A stretch of DNA of 64,000 nucleotides from Bacteroidales bacterium (GCA_017412115.1 JAFPYR010000021.1:68644-132643); one strand, 5' to 3'; numbered from the stretch's first letter, positions 2,992-40,158 are shown. The notes: generated by a model from the letters alone, not told the origin. Translations and numbers: made by a program.

Positions 2992-3193
2992 CACTACCTA
3001 CGGTAGTGAGTGCGCCTCATGCCGGCGGGGCAGTTCCCTTTTGAAAAAGGGAACCGGAAAACTTTTAGGAGATATAAAAAGGGAAAGCCCCTAAAGGCTT
3101 TCCCTTTTTATATCTCACAGAAGTTCTTTGGTTCTTTCTTTCAAGAAAGAACAGCCCCCGCGGCTTGAGCGGCATTCACCGCTGTAAGCGGTG
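2992..3193 (+). repeat. structured intergenic repeat, copy A (multi-hairpin; REP/MITE-like element or ncRNA)
   Basis: About 96% identical over its ~152-nt core to 35701-35850. Hairpins: CACTACC/GGTAGTG, GTTCCCTTT/AAAGGGAAC, a 21-bp perfect stem GAGATATAAAAAGGGAAAGCC/GGCTTTCCCTTTTTATATCTC, GTTCTTTCT/AGAAAGAAC, and CACCGC/GCGGTG. GC-rich outer arms GCCGGCGGGGC...GCCCCCGCGGC. Confidence 0.7.
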
Positions 3194-3194
3194 T

Positions 3195-3449
3195 TTAATC
3201 ATTGCTTTTTTTCATAATAGCATAGATTTCGAAGCAAAATCCGAATAGGACGACGATTGGAGCGAGAGTTATGTGTGTGAAGCTGAATATTGATTCGTCG
3301 AAGACGTTAGGGTCGTCGGAGCCGCCGCCGCCCATGAGGATAAAACCTATTAGGATAATGCCTAAACCTATTAGCATGAGTTTGTAGTTCTCTTTAGAGA
3401 GAGCCATTGAGAATTTAGAATCTTCTTTGTTATCGTTTTTTACTTCCAT
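3195..3449 (-). CDS. DUF3098-like small membrane protein
   Basis: 84 aa with two TM helices and a GGGGSDDP loop. Resembles the small Bacteroidota DUF3098 family (recalled, not searched). Confidence 0.55.
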   Translation of the reverse strand: MEVKNDNKEDSKFSMALSKENYKLMLIGLGIILIGFILMGGGGSDDPNVFDESIFSFTHITLAPIVVLFGFCFEIYAIMKKSND

Positions 3450-6680: not shown

Positions 6681-8609
6681 TTAAATCCCTTTTTCATATT
6701 CTTCAGTTGCTTTTTCCCAGATTTCCATTTCTTTTTCTAATTCGGCTTTGATTTCGTCGTAACGTTTAAACAAATCCATATCAGTTTGGTTTTCCGGGAG
6801 TTCTAATTTTTTTTGGACCTCTGACAAATCTGCTTCTAATTCTGCAATCCTTTTCTCTGACTTTTCGACAGCAGATTTTAGTTTTCTGACCGCTTTTTCC
6901 TTTTCTTTCTTTTGAAGATAATCCTGCTTTGAAGATGTTGGTGCAGCAGTTTCTGTTTTAACGGTTTGCTTATCGCCTTGAAGTTCAAACTGCCGCATAT
7001 TTTCCAATTTTAGTTTCTCTAAGAAATATGTTATGTCGCCGCGGTACTGTTTTACTTTTTTGTCCTTGAACTCATAAACGGTTTCAGCCAAGCCGTGAAG
7101 AAAATCTCTATCGTGAGAAACCAAAATAAGTGTGCCGTCATACGCCAAAAGTGCCTTTTTCAAAATATCTTTGCTCCTGATGTCTAAGTGGTTAGTCGGC
7201 TCGTCAAGCACCAAAAGCGAATACGGTTGAAAAAGAAGTTTCGCCATTTCGAGTCTTGCTCTTTCGCCGCCTGATAAGACTTTTACTTTTTTGTCGATGT
7301 CTTCACCGCCAAAAAGGAACGCACCAAGAATATCACGAACTTTTGTTCTCATATCGCCCGTTGCAATATCGTCAAGTGTTTGAAAAACAGTCTTTTCCAT
7401 ATCCAAAAGTTCGTCCTGATTCTGAGCGTAATAACCGATTGAAACATTGTAACCGAGTTTTAGTTCGCCTTCAAAGGGCAACTGACCGATAATGCAGCGC
7501 GAAAACGTTGTTTTACCTTCGCCGTTTCGTCCTACAAAAGCCACTTTTTCGCCCCTTTGCAACTCAAAATCAACACCGTCCAAAATCACTTTTTCTCCGA
7601 AAGCCTTTTTAAAATTAGAGGCCTTCACTACAATTTGACCTGAACGCGGTGCGGGCGGAAATTTAAAATGAATTGACGAATTATCTTCCAAATCAACTTC
7701 CAAACGCTCCATCTTTTCAAGCATTTTTATACGCGATTGCACCTGATTAGATTTCGTCGGTTTATAACGAAAACGCTCGATAAAATCTTCGGTATCCTGA
7801 ATGATTTTTTGCTGGTTTTCGTATGCGGCAATTTGTTGACGGCGACGCTCTTGTCTTAATTCCAAATATTTGGTGTACGGCGCATTGTAGTCGTAAATTT
7901 TTCCGAGCGAAATTTCAACGGTGCGTTTTGTAACGTTGTCCAAGAAACTCCTATCGTGCGAAATCAAAACAACCGCTCCTGCATAATCCTTCAAAAAATC
8001 TTCCAACCACTGAATTGACTCAATATCAAGGTGGTTAGTCGGCTCGTCAAGCAGAAAAACTGACGGTTTTCTCAAAATGACTTTTGCTAAAATGATTCTC
8101 ATCTTCCAACCGCCTGAAAATTCCGAAGTCATTCTGCTGAAATCACTTTGTTTAAAACCCAAACCTTTCAATACAACCTCTGCTTGTGCCTCATTTTGAT
8201 CGTTAGCAAGGAGTTGAAGTCTGTCCTGAGTTTCTGTCAAACGGTTTATTAATTGTAGATAATCGTCTGTTTCGTAATCAGTTCTATCGGCTATTTCAAG
8301 TGAAAGTTTATTAACTTCTTCCTCCAATTTTTTCTTATCTTCAAAACAAGTAAGCGTTTCAGCGATAACGGTTCTGCCCTTTGGTAGATCCATTTGTTGC
8401 GGCAAATAACCGATTGAAACTCCGCCCGGAATAGTAACACTGCCTCTTTCAACGGGTTGTTCTCCCGTGATGACTTTTAGAAGCGTGGATTTTCCTGCGC
8501 CGTTTTTTCCCGTCAGACCGATTCTGTCTTTCGGATTAATTACAAAACTTATGTCTTGAAAAAGGTCTGTGCCTGAAAATGTTACCGTTACGTTGTTGAT
8601 TGAAATCAT
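6681..8609 (-). CDS. ABC-F family ATPase (no membrane domain)
   Basis: Two ABC cassettes (GKNGAGKST and GRNGEGKTT; LSGGWKMR and LSGGERAR) and a C-terminal charged coiled coil. Confidence 0.9.
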   Translation of the reverse strand: MISINNVTVTFSGTDLFQDISFVINPKDRIGLTGKNGAGKSTLLKVITGEQPVERGSVTIPGGVSIGYLPQQMDLPKGRTVIAETLTCFEDKKKLEEEVNKLSLEIADRTDYETDDYLQLINRLTETQDRLQLLANDQNEAQAEVVLKGLGFKQSDFSRMTSEFSGGWKMRIILAKVILRKPSVFLLDEPTNHLDIESIQWLEDFLKDYAGAVVLISHDRSFLDNVTKRTVEISLGKIYDYNAPYTKYLELRQERRRQQIAAYENQQKIIQDTEDFIERFRYKPTKSNQVQSRIKMLEKMERLEVDLEDNSSIHFKFPPAPRSGQIVVKASNFKKAFGEKVILDGVDFELQRGEKVAFVGRNGEGKTTFSRCIIGQLPFEGELKLGYNVSIGYYAQNQDELLDMEKTVFQTLDDIATGDMRTKVRDILGAFLFGGEDIDKKVKVLSGGERARLEMAKLLFQPYSLLVLDEPTNHLDIRSKDILKKALLAYDGTLILVSHDRDFLHGLAETVYEFKDKKVKQYRGDITYFLEKLKLENMRQFELQGDKQTVKTETAAPTSSKQDYLQKKEKEKAVRKLKSAVEKSEKRIAELEADLSEVQKKLELPENQTDMDLFKRYDEIKAELEKEMEIWEKATEEYEKGI

Positions 8610-10833: not shown

Positions 10834-10966
10834 TTTTCTTTTTAGATTTTGTTTAAAAAATTAATGTATAGCGGTGGGTCTGAAAGAAATGTCTGCTTTT
10901 GCTTTAGCATTTTTTTTAAGCGGTTGCAATCAAAATCAAATCCGTCCGCAATTATCTTTACGGCGG

Positions 10967-16070: not shown

Positions 16071-16098
16071 AATTTGTGCAAGATATGTATTTTTTTAT

Positions 16099-16106
16099 TA
16101 ATTTTG
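16099..16106 (+). promoter_or_regulatory. -7 box TAATTTTG
   Basis: Lies inside the 5' extension of track ORF 16074, which argues for the ATG at 16137 as the true start. Confidence 0.45.
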
Positions 16107-16136
16107 CACAAAAAAATATTAAAAATTTTAATAAAC

Positions 16137-16748
16137 ATGAAAATTTTTTGTATAGCAGCCAATTATCCTAAACACAATCAGGAAATAAAGATGAAAGCTG
16201 AGGCTGAGCCCGTTATGTTTATAAAACCTGAAACGGCATATCTTAAAAATTTCAGTGATTTTTATATACCCGAGTTTTCCTCACAGGTTGAATACGAAAC
16301 CGAAATAGTCTTGAAAATCAATAAGATGTGCAAATGTGTTGATAAGAAGTTTGCTTCACGTTATTATTCGGAATTAACATTAGGTCTTGATATTACAGCC
16401 AGAGATATTCAGAACTTAGCGAGGGAAAAAGGTTTGCCGTGGTTTTTGAGCAAAGGATTTGATTTTTCAGCTCCCGTTGGGGATTTCTTGCCTAAAACGG
16501 ATTTTGATACGGTTCACGACATAGATTTTTCTTTGAATATTAACGGTAAGGAAGTTCAAAGAGGAAATTCAAAGGATATGATATTTTCTTTTGACGAAAT
16601 CGTGTCATATATTTCGCAGTATGTAACCCTTAAAACGGGAGATTTAATCTTTACGGGTACTCCACAAGGGGTTGGAAAACTTAATATCGGTGATAAACTC
16701 GAAGGCTTTTTGTCTGGAAAAAAGGTTTTGGAGATTAATGTAAAATAA
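16137..16748 (+). CDS. fumarylacetoacetate hydrolase (FAH) family protein
   Basis: MKIFCIAANYPKH...EYETEIVL...GDLIFTGTPQGVG, typical of the FAH/2-keto-4-pentenoate hydratase family. Start moved from 16074 on promoter evidence. Confidence 0.8.
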   Translation: MKIFCIAANYPKHNQEIKMKAEAEPVMFIKPETAYLKNFSDFYIPEFSSQVEYETEIVLKINKMCKCVDKKFASRYYSELTLGLDITARDIQNLAREKGLPWFLSKGFDFSAPVGDFLPKTDFDTVHDIDFSLNINGKEVQRGNSKDMIFSFDEIVSYISQYVTLKTGDLIFTGTPQGVGKLNIGDKLEGFLSGKKVLEINVK

Positions 16749-17045
16749 TCATATAACCCTAAATGATAACTTTGTTCAAAGGACAAAATAATCATTTAAC
16801 CCTAAATGATAACTTTGTTCAAAGGACAAAATAATCATTTAACCCTAAATGATAACTTTGTTCAAAGGACAAAATGATCATTTAACCCTAAATGATGACT
16901 TTGTCCAAAGGACAAAATGATCATTTAACCCTAAATGATGACTTTGTCCAAAAGGCAAAATAATCATTTAACCCTAAATGATAACTTTGTCCAAAAGGCA
17001 AAATAATCATTTAACCCTAAATGATGACTTTGTCCAAAAGTGGAA
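16745..17045. repeat. tandem array, 7 x 43 bp, each unit with two dyad symmetries
   Basis: AACCCT recurs at 16755, 16798, 16841, 16884, 16927, 16970 and 17013, an exact 43-nt period. Each unit contains ATCATTTA-ACCC-TAAATGAT and TTTGT(T/C)C-AAA-GGACAAA. Confidence 0.9.
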
Positions 17046-17159: not shown

Positions 17160-19625
17160 ATGAAAAAGATACTTTCTTTATTGACACTATTATTAATATG
17201 TCTTAATTCTTTTGCGGATAATTCACCGAATGATAAGGCCGCAATTTTAGGAAAAATTTTAGACGGCAAGACGGGACAACCCGTTGAATATGCAACAGTT
17301 GCCGTTTATGATCAACAGACAAGCGGATTGATTTCCGGAACTATTACCTCTAATGACGGAAGTTTCAAAATCGATGGACTCAAAAGCGGAACTTATTATA
17401 TTAAAGCGAGTTTTATCGGTTATGACGAAAAAATTGTCCGTGATATTGTATTGGAAGGCAAAAACAAAGATTTAGGTGTTATAAAACTTTCAACCTCTGA
17501 CGCCGAAATCGAAGAAGTTGAAATTGTTGCTCAAAAAAAGGACATCAGTTATCAGATTGACAAAAAAGTCATTAATCTTTCCACCGATATTAATGCCGAC
17601 AACGGAAGTGCCGCCGATGCTTTGGAAGGTGTTCCGAGTGTAGATGTGGATATTGACGGAAATGTTTCACTTCGTGGTAGCAGTAATTTTACTGTTTTGA
17701 TTGACGGCAAACCTACCGCTTTGGACGCAGCCGAGGTCTTAAAACAAACTCCTGCCGCTATGATTGATAATATCGAAATTATTACTAACCCTTCAGCAAA
17801 ATATGACCCCGAAGGTACTACGGGTATTATTAATCTTGTCACCAAAAAAAATATGATTCAAGGTATTAATGGTGTTGTTAATGCTAATGTAGGAAGTCAG
17901 GGACGTTACGGCGGAGATTTTCTTTTTAACCGTAGAAGAGATAAGATTAATTATTTTGTCGGAGGACATTATAATCAAAGAGGTTTTGATTTTAATTCTA
18001 TTTCAGACCGTATCACACATGAAACGGATTATGATAAATATGTTTATCAGAAGGCCAATCACGAGCGCAGATTCGGCGGTGGCGGTCTTAAAACGGGTTT
18101 GGATTATTACCTTAACGATAATAATCTTTTTAACTTTTCTATCGAAGGCGGACTTTTTTCAAGCAGTGTTGATGGTAATAACACTTATAAAAATTATGTT
18201 AAGACCCAAGATGTTGAGTCAGATCATGAAGATGTGAAATCTACGACTACTGAAGACGAAAATTCATATTATTATAACACGAGTTTGTCGTATACGCATA
18301 ATTTTGCGGGCAAAGGTCATAAATTGAATTTCAACGGTTTTTATTCTTATAACGACCGTGATGCGGATAATCTTTTTGTTCAAAAGTCTGAATTAGAAAA
18401 CGATATATTTAAAAAATCAGGTCATCAAATCGGTAATCAGAAAACAACCAACAGGGGACGTATTAATCTTGATTATACTAAACCTTTTGCTAACGGTAAT
18501 AAATTTGAGGCAGGTTTTCAGGAGGATTTGAACCATGCCGTAACCGATTATGACTTTGACGATTATGTGTCATCTTCCGATAGTTATGTTTATAATCCTG
18601 AGTTTACGAATGATGTAGTTTTTAAGCGTTATATTTCATCTGTGTATTCAACTTTTTCGGCAACTTTCGGAAATTTTGGTATGCAACTCGGATTAAGGGG
18701 TGAGTATACTTACAGGGAGATGAATACCAAAAACGGATTAATTGATACAACGTTTTTAATCGACCGTTTTGATTGGTTTCCTTCGATTCATCTTTCTCAA
18801 AACATAGGACAAAATTCTCTTCAAGCGGGTTATTCAAGACGTATACGCCGTCCTTGGGAGCAGGCGTTGAATCCTTTTCCCGCATATTCTGACGAATATT
18901 CAAGAAGAATAGGTAATCCCGATTTGAAACCTCAATACACTGATGTTTTTGAACTTAATTATCAGATGAATTTTGATAAGTTTTTTGTTGCCTTGGAGAC
19001 TTTTTACCGTCATACGGACGGAGCAACGGAAAATGTCAGCACTTTGGCTACCGACGGTTCAGGTATTTTGATTTCAAGATTTGAGAATCTTTCTACCAAT
19101 AATAATTTCGGGCTTGAACTCTCAGGTGATTATGAGATTAATAAATGGATTAAATTCAGTGCGAATTTTGAAGTCAGACAATATTATATAAGAGGTAATT
19201 ATAACGGTCAGATGCGTTATCAGGACGGAAAATCATGGCGCACGAAAGAAACATTATCTCTTTCACCGGGCAAGACTACAAAGATTCAGATTAATATGCG
19301 TTACCGTGGTAGCGACAAAACGCTTGTATCTTCCAATCAAGGCAATCTTGATTTAGGACTTGCAATCAGACAGAGTTTCTTTAAGAAAAGACTTTCTATG
19401 TCATTCAGTATGAGGGATATGCTTAATACGGGAACAAGTAAACAAACGACCGACACGCCGGAATATTGGCTTTATACTGAAAGACACCGTGCTGCTCCGA
19501 TGTGGAATTTAGGTATTTCCTTTAAGATTAATAGTTATAAGGAGAAACGTCCGAACGGTTATGAAGGCGGTGAAGGCGGCGAAGAAGGCGATATGGAAGG
19601 CGGCTTTGACGGCGGTGATTATTAA
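17160..19625 (+). CDS. TonB-dependent-receptor-like outer-membrane beta-barrel protein with N-terminal carboxypeptidase-regulatory-like domain
   Basis: Signal peptide; CarbopepD_reg-like GKILDGKTGQPVEYATVAVYD; plug-like region (LEGVPSVDVDIDGNVSLRGSSNFTVLIDGKP); long beta-barrel; Gly/Glu-rich tail. Confidence 0.8.
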   Translation: MKKILSLLTLLLICLNSFADNSPNDKAAILGKILDGKTGQPVEYATVAVYDQQTSGLISGTITSNDGSFKIDGLKSGTYYIKASFIGYDEKIVRDIVLEGKNKDLGVIKLSTSDAEIEEVEIVAQKKDISYQIDKKVINLSTDINADNGSAADALEGVPSVDVDIDGNVSLRGSSNFTVLIDGKPTALDAAEVLKQTPAAMIDNIEIITNPSAKYDPEGTTGIINLVTKKNMIQGINGVVNANVGSQGRYGGDFLFNRRRDKINYFVGGHYNQRGFDFNSISDRITHETDYDKYVYQKANHERRFGGGGLKTGLDYYLNDNNLFNFSIEGGLFSSSVDGNNTYKNYVKTQDVESDHEDVKSTTTEDENSYYYNTSLSYTHNFAGKGHKLNFNGFYSYNDRDADNLFVQKSELENDIFKKSGHQIGNQKTTNRGRINLDYTKPFANGNKFEAGFQEDLNHAVTDYDFDDYVSSSDSYVYNPEFTNDVVFKRYISSVYSTFSATFGNFGMQLGLRGEYTYREMNTKNGLIDTTFLIDRFDWFPSIHLSQNIGQNSLQAGYSRRIRRPWEQALNPFPAYSDEYSRRIGNPDLKPQYTDVFELNYQMNFDKFFVALETFYRHTDGATENVSTLATDGSGILISRFENLSTNNNFGLELSGDYEINKWIKFSANFEVRQYYIRGNYNGQMRYQDGKSWRTKETLSLSPGKTTKIQINMRYRGSDKTLVSSNQGNLDLGLAIRQSFFKKRLSMSFSMRDMLNTGTSKQTTDTPEYWLYTERHRAAPMWNLGISFKINSYKEKRPNGYEGGEGGEEGDMEGGFDGGDY

Positions 19626-23236: not shown

Positions 23237-23722
23237 ATGAAAAAGTTGAACAAAAAAATGGTTGTAGTTGCAATGGCTTTTGCAGCAACATTGTTGAATC
23301 CGGCAAACAGTTTTTCTAATGTTAGAATCGACACTCTTAAAACTGCTGATTCTGAAGAAACTGCAATCAGCCCCGATTTTGAAGAAGAATTGGAAGAAGA
23401 GGCTTTAGCTGTTGAAAAATGGATGTTTGAGCCCGTTTATGTAAACGCTGAAGAAAATCTTGAGGTTGAGGCTTGGATGAGCGAGAATTTATTTGAAAAT
23501 GCTGAAGAAAAGCTCGAAGTTGAGGCTTGGATGAGTGAAAACGCATTTGAGGATGCTGAAGAAAAACTCGAAGTTGAGGCTTGGATGAGCGAAAACGCAT
23601 TTGAAGATGCTGAAGAAAAACTCGTAGTAGAGGATTGGATGAGCGAAAAAATCTTCGAAGATGCTGAAGAAACGCTTGAAATCGAATCTTGGATGAGCGA
23701 TCCCGATTATTTCAAAAAATAA
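23237..23722 (+). CDS. secreted acidic protein with six (E/D/S)WM motifs (18-aa tandem repeats)
   Basis: Signal peptide, then AEEKLEVEAWMSENAFED-type units. Confidence 0.6.
   Translation: MKKLNKKMVVVAMAFAATLLNPANSFSNVRIDTLKTADSEETAISPDFEEELEEEALAVEKWMFEPVYVNAEENLEVEAWMSENLFENAEEKLEVEAWMSENAFEDAEEKLEVEAWMSENAFEDAEEKLVVEDWMSEKIFEDAEETLEIESWMSDPDYFKK
23447..23716 (+). repeat. in-frame 54-bp tandem repeat x5 inside the CDS
   Basis: aa 71-160 split into five 18-aa units: AEENLEVEAWMSENLFEN, AEEKLEVEAWMSENAFED (x2), AEEKLVVEDWMSEKIFED, AEETLEIESWMSDPDYFK. Confidence 0.9.
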
Positions 23723-33974: not shown

Positions 33975-35660
33975 ATGGCTAAAAATTCAGTTACCGTTAC
34001 GAATCAAGAGGGGGGTGGCGATGTCGTTTTGGTTGTTAAAAAGAAAAAGTTTCCTTGGTGGATTTTGCTTTTCTTGTTGCCGCTAATACTTTTGATTCCT
34101 GTTAAAAGACAGATTTTCATAAGGTTTTTGGCGCAGCCTTCTAACATTGCGGTTTCACAGACGGCGGTTCAAGCCGTTTATCCTGAAATTTCAACGTTTG
34201 GCGGCGTAACAGAGAAACCTTTTTCCGGGACGACCGATGATAAAGGCGAGGTTGTTATCTCTGATGTTAAACAACCTTTATGGTACAAACTTTTCGGCGG
34301 TGCTAACGATTCCGTTTCTGTTACTTGTGTTAATACTTGTCAGGAATTAAACAATGCAAAATACGGTTTCAAGGAGTTTCCGTTTGATGATTTCAAGGAC
34401 GTTTATTTGACTTCAAAGACAAGCGTTGAAACCTTGAAAGTCATTGATTTGGACGATAATCAGCCTTTACCGGATGCTAATGTTAGCATTATAAGTTCAG
34501 CTGATGGCAGTTCAAACACGACAACCGTTACAACGGATGTTTCGGGCAGTGTTGATATTAATTCAATGCCTGTTTGCGGCTCTGTTAAAGTTGTGGCCTC
34601 AAAGGAAGGCTACGAAAACGATACGTTGGAGGCGACTCTCTTCGATCTGAACAACATGACGGAGTTGGAAAAATGTTTGAAACTCAAACCCTTGAAAGGC
34701 TGTGTGAAAGTTATTGTTAAAAACCTCAAGACTAAAACACTTTTGGCAGGTGCAATTGTGGAGCTGACGATTAACGGTCAGTCCCAAAAACTTAAAACTA
34801 ATACCAACGGTGTCGGTGTCGGAATGTTTGATTCGTTACGTATAACGCAGCAACTCAATTTTTTAGCCTCAAAATCAGGTTATGCGGACACATCACTTAC
34901 AGGTTCTACCGTCAAGGACTTTATGTCTTGGGACGAAGAAAAACGCACAATGTATTTGCGCCCGCTTACAACCTCATTAGTTTTTATTAACACTGATAAT
35001 AATAACGTTTTGGAAGGTGTTACAAACGTGATTTACAAAAACGGTACGAAAATCGCAACCGAATATAGTAATTCAAAAGGCGAATTTGTGGTCAGCAATA
35101 TCGCCGAAAACGATAAAATATCAATCGTTGCCTCCAAAACAGGTTATTCCACCAATTCTACAAAGGTTAAGAATCAAACCTTGTCAAGCCTTAACACTCA
35201 GGCTTCAAGAACAATTCCTTTAACCAAAAACGAAGTCAGACGTGTAGACCCGCCACCTGTTAACAATAATATCTCTGACTTAAAAGGTCAAAGCGGTGAT
35301 TTGCGTGTAAACCTTCAATGGTACACCAAAACAGACCTCGACCTCCATGTCATCGACCCGTGCGGAAACGAGATTTTCTTCTCTAAACGCCGCGCATCTT
35401 GTGGCGGCGGTGCAGGTACTCTCGACCTCGATGCTAACGCCCTATTCGGTACAACTTCTCGCCCTCAAGAAAATATCTACTGGAACAAACCTTCTAAAGG
35501 TACTTACACAATCAAAGTAGATTGTTTCAAATGGCGCGAAAACTCAATGGCTCCTTTAAGCTATAATATCACAATTATCGATAAAGGCGTCCGTACCGAT
35601 AAACGGGGAACTATTACTAAAGGTCAAAACATTATCGTTTGTAAACATAATGTGAACTAA
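33975..35660 (+). CDS. membrane-anchored protein with repeated carboxypeptidase-regulatory-like Ig domains and a C-terminal DUF2135/YfaP-like domain
   Basis: TM anchor; several ~80-aa beta-sandwich repeats (V.D.DDNQPLPDANV..., GAIVELTINGQ...); C-terminus LRVNLQWYTKTDLDLHVIDPCGNEIFF. Confidence 0.55.
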   Translation: MAKNSVTVTNQEGGGDVVLVVKKKKFPWWILLFLLPLILLIPVKRQIFIRFLAQPSNIAVSQTAVQAVYPEISTFGGVTEKPFSGTTDDKGEVVISDVKQPLWYKLFGGANDSVSVTCVNTCQELNNAKYGFKEFPFDDFKDVYLTSKTSVETLKVIDLDDNQPLPDANVSIISSADGSSNTTTVTTDVSGSVDINSMPVCGSVKVVASKEGYENDTLEATLFDLNNMTELEKCLKLKPLKGCVKVIVKNLKTKTLLAGAIVELTINGQSQKLKTNTNGVGVGMFDSLRITQQLNFLASKSGYADTSLTGSTVKDFMSWDEEKRTMYLRPLTTSLVFINTDNNNVLEGVTNVIYKNGTKIATEYSNSKGEFVVSNIAENDKISIVASKTGYSTNSTKVKNQTLSSLNTQASRTIPLTKNEVRRVDPPPVNNNISDLKGQSGDLRVNLQWYTKTDLDLHVIDPCGNEIFFSKRRASCGGGAGTLDLDANALFGTTSRPQENIYWNKPSKGTYTIKVDCFKWRENSMAPLSYNITIIDKGVRTDKRGTITKGQNIIVCKHNVN

Positions 35661-35676
35661 AAAGAATTCCAAAGTG

Positions 35677-35880
35677 CACTGCCTTGTCAGCAGTGGGGTT
35701 CGCCTCATGCCGGCGGGGCAGTTCCCTTTTGAAAAAGGGAACCGGAAAACTTTTAAGAGATATAAAAAAGGGAAAGCCTCTAAAGGCTTTCCCTTTTTTA
35801 TATCTCATAGAAGTTCTTTGGTTCTTTCTTTCAAGAAAGAACGCCCCCGCGGCGAGCGGCAACCGCAGCCGTAGGCGGCG
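35677..35880 (+). repeat. structured intergenic repeat, copy B
   Basis: Same orientation and hairpin set as 2992-3193. The long stem is 22 bp here (one extra A and one matching extra T). Sits between two convergent stop codons. Confidence 0.7.
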
Positions 35881-35904
35881 TTCTTTTTGAGTTCGTTTTT
35901 TAGT

Positions 35905-38900
35905 TTACAACCATTTTACCAAAGCGAAATCTGTTCTGTGAACGAGATTTTTGTTTGATGGGAATAGTCTGAAACCGTAGTTGAAGTTACCGGGTTTATC
36001 GGGTCTGAGGTCGATGCTGTAATGAGCGAAACGGCCTGCTTCTTTTTGGAGTTTAAGCGGAACGGTAGAGAGTAGTTTAGAGCTACCGTCTTGGCTAACT
36101 TCGGTCATAACCATTTCAATAGCGATATCTTCAGCTTTGAGGTCGCCTAAGTTTACGACAACTTCACCGTAGTATTCTTCGCCCATGTAGAGCGGGTCTT
36201 TTACGATGTCGTGGAATGAAACTTTTTCTACAGAGAGTTTATCCCAAGCTTGAACGACTTTATGTTTCCAAGCAGCGAGTTCGAGGGCTACTTTGTAGTT
36301 ATTTGCGCTAACGGTTGCTCCTGTTTCAGCGAGTTTGTTGTAATAACGTTCGTAGTAATCGTCCAACTGACGTTTCATTGTGAAGTTAGGAGCAATGTGT
36401 CCGATAGAGTTTTTGATAACGCTAACCCACTGTTCAGGAACGCCTTGTTCGTTTCTTGTGTAGAATTTCGGGCAAATGTCCTCAATGATTGTACGGTAGA
36501 TAGTAGCTGCGTCCAATTGGTTTTGGAAACCTTGGTCTTGATAAGCTCTTTCTTGCGGCAAGCACCAACCACCATCGGGGCGGTAACCTTCAACCCACCA
36601 ACCATCAAGTACTGAATAGTGAATAGCACCGTTCATAACGGCTTTCATTCCTGATGTACCTGATGCCTCGAGAGGACGTGTCGGGGTGTTCATCCAAATA
36701 TCAACGCCAGAAACAAGTTTCTTAGCCAAAGAGATGTCGTAATCTTCGAGGAAGAGGATTTTGCCGACAAATTCGGGACGTTTAGAAATCTCAACGATTT
36801 GTTTGATGATACCTTGTCCGCCGCCGTCAGCCGGGTGAGCTTTACCTGCGAAGATAAACTGAACGGGTCTTACGGGGTCGTTTACTATTTTTGACAAGAT
36901 GTCGAGGTTTGTCATAAGCAAGTTACCGCGTTTGTAAGTTGCGAAACGACGTGCAAAACCGATGGTCAAAGTGTTGGGATTCAAAGCGTTTTTGATTTTT
37001 ACCATTGATGAAGGATCTTCACCGCGTTTTTGGTAATCGGCTTCCATTTTGATTTTGATGTAGTCGATAAGTTCTTTACGCTTTTGCTGACGCATTTTCC
37101 AGATTTCTCCGTTATCAACACCTTGAATAGCATTCCAATAAGACTCGTTAGATTGGTCTTTGAGGAATTTCTTGTCAAATGTTTTTTGGTAGAATTGCTG
37201 CCATTCTTTAGCTGCCCAAGTCGGATAGTGTACACCATTTGTAACGTATCCGATATTAAGCTCTTCCGGGTAGTAACCGCTCCACATGTAGTTGAACATG
37301 TTTTTGGTAACCTCGCCGTGAAGCATTGAAACGCCGTTAACCTCTTGTGATAATTGACAAGCAAGGTAAGAGAAGTTGAATTCCTGACCTCTGTCATCAA
37401 CGTTGTTTTTACCCAAAGCTAAGAACTCTTTCCATGAGATACCGAGTCTTTCGGGATAGTGTCCCATGTAGGTTAAAATCATATCTTCGGGGAAAGCATC
37501 GTGTCCTGCCGGAACGGGCGTGTGAGTAGTGTAAAGCGTTGAAGCACGTACAATTTCCAAAGCCTCGTTGAGAGTGAAATTGTGTTCTTGGATAAGGTTG
37601 TTCAAACGCTCGATACCCATCAATGCCGCATGACCTTCGTTCATGTGGTAAATCTGTTTTGTGATGCCCATTTTTCTAAGAGCGCGGATACCACCGACAC
37701 CGAGCAACATTTCTTGTTTCAAACGGTTTTCTCTGTCGCCGCCGTACAAGTGGTGAGTTACCCAACGGTCTTGATCCCAATTAGCCTCGAAATCAGTATC
37801 CAAAAGATAAAGTTCGATTCTTCCCACTTGAGCTTTCCAAACTTGAGCGGTAAGTTTTCTACCCGGGAATGCCACTTGAATGGTCATTTGATTGCCGTTT
37901 TCGTCTTTTACGGCCGTGATGGGCAAGTATCTGAAGTCCTGAGGAACGTCCTCTGCAATTTGGTCGCCCCAAACAGAAATCTTCTGACGGAAATATCCGT
38001 AACGGTAAAGAAGACCGACTGCAACCATATCAACGTTAGAGTCAGAAGCCTCTTTCAAATAGTCGCCGGCTAAGATACCAAGACCGCCTGAGAAGATTTT
38101 CAAGGAGTCATGAATACCATATTCCATACAGAAATATGCAACGGATGGACCTTTTGCATTTTTCTTTTCTTCCATATATGCACGGAAATCGGCGTAAACT
38201 TTTTCGTATTTAGCTATAAAATCCTGATCGTTTTCCAAAACGGACAATCTGTTAAGGTCAACCTGACGAAGCAAGGCAACGGGATTTTTACCCGATTTTT
38301 CCCACAGACCGTCTTCTCCGATGGTCTGCCACATTTCTTCGGCCTCGAAATTCCAACACCACCAGAGGTTGTAGGACATTTCTTCCAAGCCTTTAAATTT
38401 TCCTGAAAGGTTCGGGTGAACCTGAATGTTTCTCCAAATAGGGTTGTTCACTTTTATTTCTTTTATGTTAAACGATTCGTGTGAATATTTTGAAAAATCA
38501 GCCTCTTCAAAACGTTTTACCGTTCTGTCTAATGCAATTGAATAGGCTTTTAAATAATATTTCGTGAGATTCTTCCACAAGAACTGTTGCGAAAGTTCGT
38601 ATGCCGCCTTTTTAGTTTTTTCCATGTCGGCTTTTGACAAAGCGGCATAGTCAATAACGGCTTTTGCAAGATTATAAACGACATCGTTATAATTATCATC
38701 GTTGCGGTGAAGTACTATAACGGGTTTTGTTTCTTTTGGCAAAAGATTTTCCGTATACTTTCCAAAACCTGCAAGGTCGGTTGTGATTGTCGGCACACTG
38801 AATGCAATACTTTCAAGAGGCGTGTATCCCCAAGGTTCGTAATATGAGGGGAATGCCGTTATGTCCATACCGACTAACAAATCGTAGTAAGGCATATTGA

Positions 38901-40158
38901 AAATACCGTCATCACCTTTTAAATATGAAGGAACGAAAATAAGTTTCAATTTGCTGCCTTCTGCGTTGTCAAGGCCGAGCGAGATAGCGCGGTTGCATAC
39001 GGCGTCATATTCTACGTGGTGAAGACCGTGGGTCAAGTACTTAGAATATTTGTCGTTTGAAACTTTCTCTTGTTTGCCCTCCAAAGCGGCTTTAAGGTCT
39101 TGACGTGCTCCGTAGTTGTTTGCGGGAACGGTTATTAACGCCAAAATATTTTTCTTACATTCACCTAAGTCGATGATTTTTTTCAATGCATCCAAAAAAA
39201 CATCAATACCTTTGTTCCTGTATTCGTAACGTCCTGAAGTTCCGAGAATTAAAGTATCATCGGAGAATTTCTCACCAAAAAGTTTTGATGCAACGTTGAG
39301 TATAGTTTTTCTTGCTGCTGCACGTTTTGTGTTGTAAACGCTGCCTTTAGGAACAAAATCGTCTTCAAAACCGTTAGGCGTTACAATATCTACTTTTCTG
39401 TATGTGAATTGTTTACACTCGATAGCGGTGATATCAGAAACCGTTGTATAAGCATCAGCGTTGAGTGCTGAAAGTTTTTCACAACTTTGTTTTGCCACCA
39501 TGTTGAACTCACGTGCCTTTGTATCGCCGTCGTATGAGTTAATCGGAGAGTACAAGGGCTGACCGTTTCCGGCAATACTTCTGCCGATTGCTGTGGCGTG
39601 CGTTGTGAAAACGGTTGCAATTTCGGGTGCGTATTTTTCAATGTAAAGAATACCTGCACCTGTCATCCACTCGTGAAAATGCGCTACGACACGGTTTTCG
39701 GGCTGAAGGTTGTATTGACAAAAACTTTCAATTACTTTACCTGCGCTGTAACCGAAAATTACGGGTTCGATATACCCCCAATCGCCTGAAATTGAATCAA
39801 GTTTGTAAGTTTCCCAAAATTCTGCGAAAATTGAATCTTTTTTGGAGATGTTTTGGGAAAAATCTACGAGGATAACGATAGGTTCACCGATGATTTTCCA
39901 GCGTCCGATTCTAACACGGGTTTCGGTGCGGTTTATAACCCTTCTCCAATCTGCGAAAAGAGTTTTGTCCTCAACGAATTCCGGATTGTCTTCCGTGTTA
40001 CGCCAAATGTCAGGACCAATCATGACGAGGTTGTCACCGAATTTTGCCTTTAAGGTCTGCGCTTTTGTTGAAACGACGGTATGGATTCCGCCTACTTTGT
40101 TGCAGACTTCCCAACTCGTTTCAAACACGAAATCGGGAGTTTGTTCTGTTGATGCCAT
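35905..40158 (-). CDS. fused glycogen synthase (GT3-like) / alpha-glucan phosphorylase (GT35)
   Basis: N-terminus FETSWEVCNKVGGIHTVVSTKA (eukaryote-type GT3 signature). The C-terminal half has alpha-glucan phosphorylase motifs and the PLP-lysine region EASGTSGMKAVMNG. Confidence 0.9.
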   Translation of the reverse strand: MASTEQTPDFVFETSWEVCNKVGGIHTVVSTKAQTLKAKFGDNLVMIGPDIWRNTEDNPEFVEDKTLFADWRRVINRTETRVRIGRWKIIGEPIVILVDFSQNISKKDSIFAEFWETYKLDSISGDWGYIEPVIFGYSAGKVIESFCQYNLQPENRVVAHFHEWMTGAGILYIEKYAPEIATVFTTHATAIGRSIAGNGQPLYSPINSYDGDTKAREFNMVAKQSCEKLSALNADAYTTVSDITAIECKQFTYRKVDIVTPNGFEDDFVPKGSVYNTKRAAARKTILNVASKLFGEKFSDDTLILGTSGRYEYRNKGIDVFLDALKKIIDLGECKKNILALITVPANNYGARQDLKAALEGKQEKVSNDKYSKYLTHGLHHVEYDAVCNRAISLGLDNAEGSKLKLIFVPSYLKGDDGIFNMPYYDLLVGMDITAFPSYYEPWGYTPLESIAFSVPTITTDLAGFGKYTENLLPKETKPVIVLHRNDDNYNDVVYNLAKAVIDYAALSKADMEKTKKAAYELSQQFLWKNLTKYYLKAYSIALDRTVKRFEEADFSKYSHESFNIKEIKVNNPIWRNIQVHPNLSGKFKGLEEMSYNLWWCWNFEAEEMWQTIGEDGLWEKSGKNPVALLRQVDLNRLSVLENDQDFIAKYEKVYADFRAYMEEKKNAKGPSVAYFCMEYGIHDSLKIFSGGLGILAGDYLKEASDSNVDMVAVGLLYRYGYFRQKISVWGDQIAEDVPQDFRYLPITAVKDENGNQMTIQVAFPGRKLTAQVWKAQVGRIELYLLDTDFEANWDQDRWVTHHLYGGDRENRLKQEMLLGVGGIRALRKMGITKQIYHMNEGHAALMGIERLNNLIQEHNFTLNEALEIVRASTLYTTHTPVPAGHDAFPEDMILTYMGHYPERLGISWKEFLALGKNNVDDRGQEFNFSYLACQLSQEVNGVSMLHGEVTKNMFNYMWSGYYPEELNIGYVTNGVHYPTWAAKEWQQFYQKTFDKKFLKDQSNESYWNAIQGVDNGEIWKMRQQKRKELIDYIKIKMEADYQKRGEDPSSMVKIKNALNPNTLTIGFARRFATYKRGNLLMTNLDILSKIVNDPVRPVQFIFAGKAHPADGGGQGIIKQIVEISKRPEFVGKILFLEDYDISLAKKLVSGVDIWMNTPTRPLEASGTSGMKAVMNGAIHYSVLDGWWVEGYRPDGGWCLPQERAYQDQGFQNQLDAATIYRTIIEDICPKFYTRNEQGVPEQWVSVIKNSIGHIAPNFTMKRQLDDYYERYYNKLAETGATVSANNYKVALELAAWKHKVVQAWDKLSVEKVSFHDIVKDPLYMGEEYYGEVVVNLGDLKAEDIAIEMVMTEVSQDGSSKLLSTVPLKLQKEAGRFAHYSIDLRPDKPGNFNYGFRLFPSNKNLVHRTDFALVKWL

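Follow-up and report, generated by a model that had tools for sequence, protein, structure and literature searches.

The window analysed here is a 64,000-nt stretch of DNA from a Bacteroidales bacterium (GCA_017412115.1, JAFPYR010000021.1:68644-132643). It contains two copies of a hairpin-rich intergenic element of ~200 nt, copy A at 2992-3193 and copy B at 35677-35880, which a check of the sequence places in the same orientation. The element is probably one copy of a dispersed, non-coding repeat in DNA, constructed as a mosaic of nested palindromes in the manner of the repetitive extragenic palindromes (REP) and bacterial interspersed mosaic elements (BIME), or of the miniature inverted-repeat transposable elements (MITE). 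The two copies share a near-identical core, as the preliminary description of this DNA had noted; BLASTN aligns 3013-3164 with 35701-35853 over 154 nt with 96.1% identity (E = 3.6e-64). No third copy is found within the window by a repeat search or by BLASTN. The G+C content of the element is 49-50%, compared with 38% for the window, and no plausible open reading frame (ORF) is found within it. The repeat family is previously undescribed, and a full-text literature search for diagnostic sequence strings of the element found no paper.

Copy A is located between the stop codon of a gene for a DUF3098 protein (3195-3449, minus strand), which it adjoins, and the promoter preceding a GH2 gene. This promoter is predicted at 2953-2984 on the minus strand as a match to the pattern TTTG-N20-TACATTTG, which we take to be the consensus for promoters of the Bacteroidetes type. 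It is conserved in L181-L186 (loci outside the window are given L numbers), and lies just outside copy A, separate from the repeat. The genes on either side of copy B converge on it, with their stop codons facing it; one encodes a 561-aa protein and the other a 1417-aa glycogen synthase/phosphorylase (35905-40158, minus strand). The latter protein comprises a glycogen synthase-like domain (PF05693), DUF3417 and an alpha-glucan phosphorylase domain (PF00343).

Alignment of the copies divides the element into layers. At the left of copy A an A-rich flank (2973-2991) reads on the minus strand as a T-rich tail following the left outer hairpin CACTACC-TAC-GGTAGTG (2992-3008), which is a terminator-like match on that strand and belongs to a locus-specific outer layer. 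GC-rich arm X (CGCCTCATGCCGGCGGGGCA, 3013-3032) leads into hairpin H1, GTTC-CCTTTT-GA-AAAAGG-GAAC (3033-3054), and from there into the L segment, C-GGAAAA-C-TTTT (3055-3066), where GGAAAA mirrors the purine arm AAAAGG of H1. The central hairpin (21 bp with a loop listed as CCTAAA, 3068-3118) varies in sequence among copies, and its loop flips between strains. It is followed by the R segment, AGAA-G-TTCTTT-G (3119-3130), in which TTCTTT mirrors the pyrimidine arm TTTCTT of hairpin H3, GTTC-TTTCTT-TC-AAGAAA-GAAC (3131-3152), and then by GC-rich arm Y (AGCCCCCGCGGCTTGAGCGG, 3153-3172). The right outer hairpin, CACCGCT-GTA-AGCGGTG, and its T-rich tail (3177-3212) abut the stop codon of the DUF3098 gene.

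The order of parts is the same in copy B. The A-rich flank and left outer hairpin, CACTGC-CTTGTCA-GCAGTG (35655-35695), come first, the hairpin beginning 17 nt past the stop codon of the 561-aa gene. The core, placed by alignment at 35701-35859, consists of arm X (35701-35720), H1 (35721-35742), L (35743-35754), the central hairpin (35756-35808), R (35809-35820), H3 (35821-35842) and arm Y (35843-35859). The right outer hairpin, CGCAGCC-GTA-GGCGGCG, with its T-rich tail TTCTTTTTGAGTTCGTTTTTT (35864-35901), ends 4 nt before the stop codon of the 1417-aa gene. The paired differences between the copies that had been described initially are all seen in the alignment: A5/T5 in the long stem of one copy against A6/T6 in the other, a G..C pair that becomes A..T, and the outer stems CACTACC/GGTAGTG and CACTGC/GCAGTG.

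The outer hairpins and flanks are inverted repeats of one another, and the element is a single nested palindrome rather than three independent hairpins. The arms occur among the copies in the arrangements X..Y, Y'..Y and Y'..X'. The central hairpin is of unrelated sequence in L005, L010/L016, L013 and L195, yet a hairpin is formed every time. The element at L195 is without arms, which reduces the minimal unit to H-L-centre-R-H' and makes the arms an outer addition. H and H' are A/T-rich hairpins of 22 nt, and the tracts L (after H) and R (before H') each mirror an arm of their own hairpin. In the subfamily present in the window the minimal unit is wrapped in the GC-rich arms, giving a core of ~155 nt.

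With DNA parameters the minimum-energy fold (z-score -9.4) has three hairpins closed by the GC-rich arms, in agreement with the fold first suggested. With RNA parameters the whole element instead becomes one long hairpin relying on G.U pairs, and the consensus long-hairpin fold depends on five invariant G.U pairs. The RNA z-scores lie between -12.0 and -14.2 for both strands, and none of 200 shuffled sequences folds as well. The RNAalifold consensus taken from 16 copies has 57 pairs, 14 of which have changes on both sides, chiefly within the central hairpin and the arms. Such paired changes had been taken in the preliminary description as a sign of a maintained structure, possibly a structured RNA family. 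A small or cis-regulatory RNA whose stems are kept by selection on the transcript would account for the very stable folds and the double changes, and the plus strand is more stable than the minus by 7-15 kcal/mol owing to its G.U pairs. Against this, both strands are structured, the double changes are concentrated in a perfect DNA palindrome, and copy B lies between convergent stop codons. In addition, the orientation with respect to the flanking genes differs between strains at one locus, and the loops and inner parts flip independently (see below). No Rfam family matches the element at the gathering threshold in the window and ten related loci; in E-value mode the top score, 39.9 bits, goes to a hairpin model for a plant miRNA whose threshold is 100, and is generic hairpin noise. 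We therefore consider an RNA family very unlikely.

Templated repair from one arm to the other, together with inversion (quasi-palindrome template switching), yields paired changes in DNA palindromes. The element is palindromic in DNA, its two strands are structured to the same degree, and at a single locus it occurs in either orientation; paired changes are therefore expected from these processes, with no need for selection on RNA. The compensatory changes are best read as those of a palindrome kept up in DNA on both strands, and provide no argument for a selected RNA.

The element is dispersed in related genomes. When species-representative genomes were scanned once with an exact pattern, 13 sites came up in three metagenome-assembled genomes (MAGs) of rumen Bacteroidales, comprising nine in RGIG6989, three in Tb.RUG.530 and one in RGIG6747, and all are intergenic. 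With at least 13 copies, and with the covariation described above, the early concern that the two copies might be the only ones and lack covariation falls away. A metagenome scan with a degenerate pattern added one Bacteroidales copy (L088) among the matches listed, and a search of PLSDB plasmids with the window element gave no match. The window itself belongs to a Bacteroidales genome of rumen type, as supported by its DUF3098 gene, a long-loop SAM-II riboswitch (see below) and 95% DNA identity to RGIG6989. The elements are non-coding, span 110-200 nt and lie next to the 3' ends of genes. The flanking genes are convergent at six of the 12 distinct Bacteroidales loci and tandem at five, with a single flanking gene called at the remaining one; none is divergent, and no convincing gene spans the element at any of the 12.

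The ~155-nt core is 86-99% identical at unrelated loci, and copies at non-orthologous loci are sometimes more alike than orthologs. The copy at a different locus, L004, is 99.4% identical to copy A over 170 nt, while the ortholog of locus A (L011) is only 93.7% identical. Copies have therefore been exchanged or newly placed, and not solely inherited in place. Logan short-read contigs (L001 4753, L002 2707 and L003 2185) stop 67-70 nt past the stop codon of the 561-aa gene. These breaks fall one 31-mer into the shared core, where repeated sequence would be expected to cause them, and the element fragments metagenome assemblies. Unrelated palindromic intergenic repeats are present at the same gene junctions in L192 (3690-3790), L196/L197 (1866-2000) and L198 (1845-2000), for example GTTTAACGAATTAGGCGTTT...AAACGCCTAATTCGTTAAA, and related Bacteroidales genomes seem to hold several families of this general type.

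Orthologous sites may be filled or empty, as is expected for a MITE. The spacer between the ROK gene and the 561-aa gene measures only 14 nt in the window, with 19 nt in L192, and is occupied by the 132-nt armless element in L195, which derives from another Bacteroidales MAG; the site is thus filled in L195, and empty in the window, L008 and L192. Two comparable cases come from the high-GC relatives described below, with L168 filled and both L171 and L144 empty, and L160 filled and L138 empty. Together with the many intergenic copies, these sites support the initial proposal of a REP- or MITE-like palindromic unit.

The element is also found inverted, at four nested levels. In L008, the ortholog of locus B (94.7% identical over 8 kb), the whole element is inverted, outer hairpins included. 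In L011 only the ~155-nt core is inverted. The element is present at locus A in each of six further strains whose DUF3098 protein is identical. Of these, L184 has an inverted core and the other five keep the orientation of the window; among the five the central loop is CCTAAA in four and TTTAGG, as in the window, in one. Where the core is inverted (L011 and L184) the left outer hairpin of locus A has not moved. Finally, the inner parts are inverted relative to the arms in L012, L014 and L088. An assembly artefact was considered as the source of these flips and rejected, as the imperfect repeats at the ends of the inverted core are short, far under the k-mer lengths used in assembly, and the alleles also differ by substitutions. 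The flips are real, and some may be due to replacement by another copy and not inversion in place.

A core in both orientations, bounded by short inverted repeats and located upstream of the GH2 gene in strains that share one DUF3098 protein sequence, might be taken for an inverton, that is a switch flipped by a site-specific recombinase to control that gene. The interior is palindromic, so that its inversion changes little, and the GH2 promoter is located outside the element. Convergent genes flank copy B and half of the other copies, there are four levels of inversion and not one defined site, and the adjacent genes (DUF3098, GH2 and an amine oxidase-like gene) include no recombinase. The properties of the element are not those of an inverton, and this is the least likely of the explanations considered.

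In both copies the left flank is A-rich and the right flank T-rich, and a simple scan finds terminator-like sites over copy A's outer hairpins, at 2992-3008 (minus strand) and 3186-3207 (plus strand), and in the GC-rich arms of both copies. Similar terminator-like flanks, AAAAAAGGGGTGTCGCC and GGCGATATGCCTTTTTTTT, are seen at L014. A GC-rich hairpin with a T-run is therefore present on both strands at gene 3' ends; the position and flanks fit the two-way terminator or insulator suggested at the outset, and the activity itself is a prediction from sequence. It might then be argued that these are ordinary two-way intrinsic terminators that are alike through descent and selection, with neither copying nor mobility. 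The flanks of A-tract, hairpin and T-tract, the terminator-like matches and the position at gene 3' ends would all be explained in this way, and the same gene end in L195 has a plain terminator, AAAAAAAAGAGTCGC..GCGGCTCTTTTTTT. Ordinary terminators would not be expected to share a 155-nt core that is 86-99% identical at unrelated loci, nor to be closer between non-orthologous copies than between orthologs. They also leave unexplained the filled and empty orthologous sites, some within operon junctions, and the occurrence of the same 30-mer in Bacteroidales, in high-GC contigs and on a plasmid of Pseudoroseomonas cervicalis. We regard this explanation as improbable.

In the dispersed palindromic repeat that we favour, the core lies between locus-specific GC-rich hairpins whose A-rich and T-rich tails resemble a two-way terminator. 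Spread might occur by means of an enzyme acting in trans, or by copying between palindromes. Copies may persist because such a large symmetric hairpin does no harm at a gene end, or is of use there as a two-way terminator, an insulator or a structure protecting the 3' end, and the paired changes in its stems would be maintained at the level of DNA.

Several observations weigh against this reading. The inverted cores of L011 and L184 carry several substitutions, and could each be a replacement by another copy. The flanks of the filled and empty pairs are only 70-88% identical, too diverged for a target-site duplication to be read, and none is obvious. The insertions in L195, L168 and L160 lie inside tight operon junctions, which is awkward if each copy is a strong terminator. 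No cognate transposase or REP-associated tyrosine transposase (RAYT) is found in the 1.2 Mb examined, so that mobility is deduced from the distribution of copies. A regex search of the same DNA found no ORF like an HuH/Y1 transposase, and clustering of 835 ORFs from module-bearing high-GC loci revealed no recurrent ORF or transposase near the modules. A parent insertion sequence with the same ends was not found in what is a limited sample. These negative results make descent as a MITE from an insertion sequence with matching ends less likely than a REP-like system with a trans-acting enzyme, or than spread by recombination. A composite transposon, in which facing modules surround a cargo, was also considered and rejected. 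Facing pairs are not enriched, and only ordinary or housekeeping genes lie between them (rhodanese, a Cys/Met PLP enzyme, a MazF/PemK-like toxin, ThyX and ATP synthase subunit a).

A very abundant relative of the element is present in bacteria of high G+C content. Metagenomes and viral contigs were searched with a degenerate pattern to which both end modules conform, and at least 120 metagenome stretches and 44 IMG/VR stretches matched it. Nearly all of the matches listed are contigs of 63-67% G+C that carry the exact 30-mer GTTCTTTTTTGAAAAAAAGAACCAAAAAAC, which is also the right module of the Bacteroidales element at L195. The architecture is the same as in Bacteroidales, with H, C-A6-C-TTTT, a GC-rich central hairpin, AAAA-G-T6-G and H' in succession. 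The features in common extend beyond the search pattern, and include the GA loop, TTTT after the third tract, and an inverted partner module at a distance that is mostly 40-80 nt. Of the 324 modules in these contigs, 319 are intergenic, many being 2-20 nt from a stop codon, and there are 108 cases of plus/minus module pairs spaced by 20-160 nt, again mostly 40-80 nt. Back-to-back modules also occur, and in L139 (3990-4320, minus strand), an IMG/VR contig from an isolate genome, three units are arranged head to tail with a period of ~148 nt. Many of the IMG/VR contigs labelled as viral (L137-L180 and L201-L274) have several elements each, with orthologous sets that include filled and empty sites, and the 31-kb contig IMGVR_UViG_3300049216_000612 has at least five. 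In L024 a perfect parS-like palindrome, TGTTTCACGTGAAACA, is located at ~8427-8442, ~15 nt upstream of a high-GC element.

The sole named host found is P. cervicalis (Acetobacteraceae), on whose plasmid pL11-B an unannotated element fills the gap between two convergent coding sequences. In a PLSDB search with the high-GC element all matches were to P. cervicalis, apart from two low-complexity look-alikes from Bacillus and Enterococcus. The former was dismissed on inspection. The latter, at 401-440 of L200 (Enterococcus cecorum plasmid pEC66, Firmicutes), reads AAAG-TTTTTT-G-TTTC-TTTTTTT-CA-AAAAAAA-GAAA; it is a candidate that could have arisen by chance in A/T-rich DNA.

The end module shared by the two groups (30-34 nt) has the form GTTC-Yn-GA-Rn-GAAC-C-(mirror of Rn)-C-TTTT. 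In modules with a perfect hairpin and a purine-only arm, the third tract is equal in length to Rn (5, 6 or 7 nt) in 347 of 348. Where Rn is asymmetric the third tract is Rn reversed in 101 of 101 modules, and a direct repeat in none. There are five mirror classes, AAGAAA/AAAGAA, AGAAAAA/AAAAAGA, AAAAGG/GGAAAA, AGAAAA/AAAAGA and AAAAGA/AGAAAA, and by our estimate the chance of five such matches is ~4e-5 if the third tract has the same composition in random order. The viral contigs were rescanned with only the foot, the loop and TTTT forced, and no constraint on purine or pyrimidine, hairpin or mirror; 16 of 17 informative perfect hairpins are mirrored, and there are no new variants. A shifted direct repeat was tried in place of the mirror, and explains three of the five variants but fails for AAAAGG/GGAAAA and AAAAGA/AGAAAA. 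In elements with two unlike modules (both copies in the window, and L190) the mirror holds within each module and Watson-Crick pairing between L and R is lost. Nine modules have a C interruption in the purine arm, with A at the mirrored position of the third tract, corresponding to T on the other strand.

Reversal without complementation cannot arise from the copying of DNA, and the mirror relation must therefore be selected. It is the relation required by an intrastrand triple helix, and so points to such a structure. We suggest tentatively that selection has shaped the end modules for an intrastrand triple helix, formed when the DNA is single-stranded or in RNA, and that this, and not the hairpins alone, is the purpose of the element. 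One strand would form a Y-R-R triplex of purine type (class II), its last R being reverse-Hoogsteen, and the other a Hoogsteen Y-Y-R triplex of pyrimidine type (class IV), with U.A-U (T.A-T) and C+.G-C triples. Possible roles are protection of an RNA 3' end, a block to polymerase, and a structure recognized by the mobilizing enzyme. This proposal adds to, and does not exclude, the dispersed palindromic repeat.

The equality of tract lengths, the mirror across five classes that DNA copying could not make, and the survival of the rule inside modules where L-R pairing is broken all agree with a triplex. A T.CG triplet is reportedly formed in pyrimidine-motif triplexes (Yoon et al. 1992). The nine C-interrupted modules fit this triplet, rather than a plain complement rule. 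The order of blocks and the loop lengths (2 and 5 nt) fall within the definition of an intrastrand triplex (ITxF classes II and IV, with stems of 6-15 nt and loops of 1-6 nt) given by Holder et al. 2015 (PMC4666352), with stems of 5-7 nt at its lower limit. The length is comparable with that of the natural RNA triple helices solved so far, which have no more than six consecutive triples (PMC7102945). On the other side there are only five independent sequence classes, and the A/T-rich tracts extend over no more than 5-7 triples; motifs of this size lie near random expectation according to Holder et al. (PMC4666352). A foot of 4 bp (GTTC/GAAC) lies between the third tract and its target with a linker of 1 nt, which is sterically hard in B-form DNA, and plausible in A-form RNA only by analogy with loop 1 of H-type pseudoknots. 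Moreover, the partner tract offers the third tract an alternative pairing within the full palindrome. Although in our assessment only a triple helix explains the covariation rule, the triplex itself is on balance doubtful. The same reserve applies to the wider proposal of a repeat family common to Bacteroidales and high-GC bacteria, including the Acetobacteraceae isolate, whose end modules selection may have shaped into an intrastrand triple helix.

Much is known of dispersed palindromic repeats in Proteobacteria, and very little has been described in the Bacteroidales, which are dominant in the gut and rumen. The present family breaks metagenome assemblies and marks the ends of transcription units, and because strains within a species differ by its inversion, it is relevant to their typing and to the evolution of operon boundaries. 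A module of 30-34 nt in two distant groups, with mirror covariation, is a directly testable case for an intrastrand triplex role, and experiments could use the element-bearing isolate P. cervicalis PL22-11A, a strain whose plasmids are sequenced. If the triplex is correct, this would be among the few cases where natural three-way covariation, and not test-tube work, argues for a nucleic acid triplex in bacteria. Transcription in each direction would then give a class IV module, with a U-rich strand, GUUC, a second U-rich strand, a loop and an A-rich strand. This would share its strand order with the triple helix of MALAT1/ENE that protects RNA 3' ends.

Three further features of the window were noticed alongside the repeat. 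A SAM-II riboswitch of the long-loop type (RF01726; 66.1 bits against a threshold of 44) is present at 10894-10955 on the minus strand. A tandem array at 16742-17038 has 6.9 copies of the 43-nt unit AAAATAATCATTTAACCCTAAATGATAACTTTGTCCAAAGGAC with 96% identity and two small hairpins per unit, and is mostly located between the ORFs at 16074-16748 and 17160-19625. At 23447-23700 a 54-nt tandem repeat is present in 4.7 copies with 85% identity; its period is a multiple of three, and it may be a coding repeat.

Of known systems, REP, BIME and the related REPIN are repetitive extragenic palindromes mobilized by RAYT tyrosine transposases. The element resembles them in having short extragenic hairpins as inverted pairs that form a longer hairpin, mosaic clusters of alternating orientation (the back-to-back modules, and the three-unit array of L139), high copy number, position at gene 3' ends, and the absence of a transposase inside. 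It differs in lacking a GT[AG]G or CGTC tag, the foot being GTTC or CTTC in nearly all modules and CTAC..GTAG in one variant. Its hairpins are A/T-rich and not G/C-rich, each carries a mirror tract, and no RAYT accompanies it in the DNA examined. RAYTs of subclass 2.6 in Bacteroidetes have flanking secondary structures of an atypical kind that lack GT[AG]G (Quentin et al. 2018, PMC6006769), and provide a lead only to what might mobilize the element.

The likeness to a MITE such as the Correia/NEMIS elements of Neisseria lies in the small non-coding unit (130-200 nt) with long terminal inverted repeats (the 34-nt H+L modules), its variable interior, insertion polymorphism and possible terminator activity. 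In contrast to a MITE, there is no visible target-site duplication between the diverged flanks and no insertion sequence with the same ends was found, and the palindrome extends into the locus-specific flanks.

The BoxC/PIT/TM_ECO repeats are reportedly intrastrand triplex repeats (Hoyne et al. 2000). They are G/C-rich repeats of Escherichia coli, described as an intrastrand triplex motif (Holder et al. 2015, PMC4666352). In common with the present element they are dispersed, and have three blocks (Y, loop, R, loop, mirror R) on one strand, class II on that strand and the pyrimidine-motif class on the other, and a link to strain rearrangement. TM_ECO is G/C-rich, with stems of 9 nt and a second loop of 3 nt; the present modules are A/T-rich, with stems of 5-7 nt, loops of 2 and 5 nt, and a 4-bp foot inside the second loop. 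Support here comes from natural covariation over five variants, and not from biophysics.

Two-way terminators share with the element an A-tract, GC-rich hairpin and T-tract between convergent genes, and in the high-GC family the L and R tracts are themselves the A- and U-tracts around the central GC-rich hairpin. Ordinary examples are not conserved in sequence between loci, and are without flanking A/T-rich hairpins. Lastly, the terminal repeats of parvoviruses such as adeno-associated virus (AAV) occur in flip and flop forms; they are the ends of linear single-stranded genomes, and are made by hairpin-primed replication. The analogy is in the small internal palindromes that take two orientations within a larger palindrome, and the difference is that the elements described here are internal chromosomal repeats.

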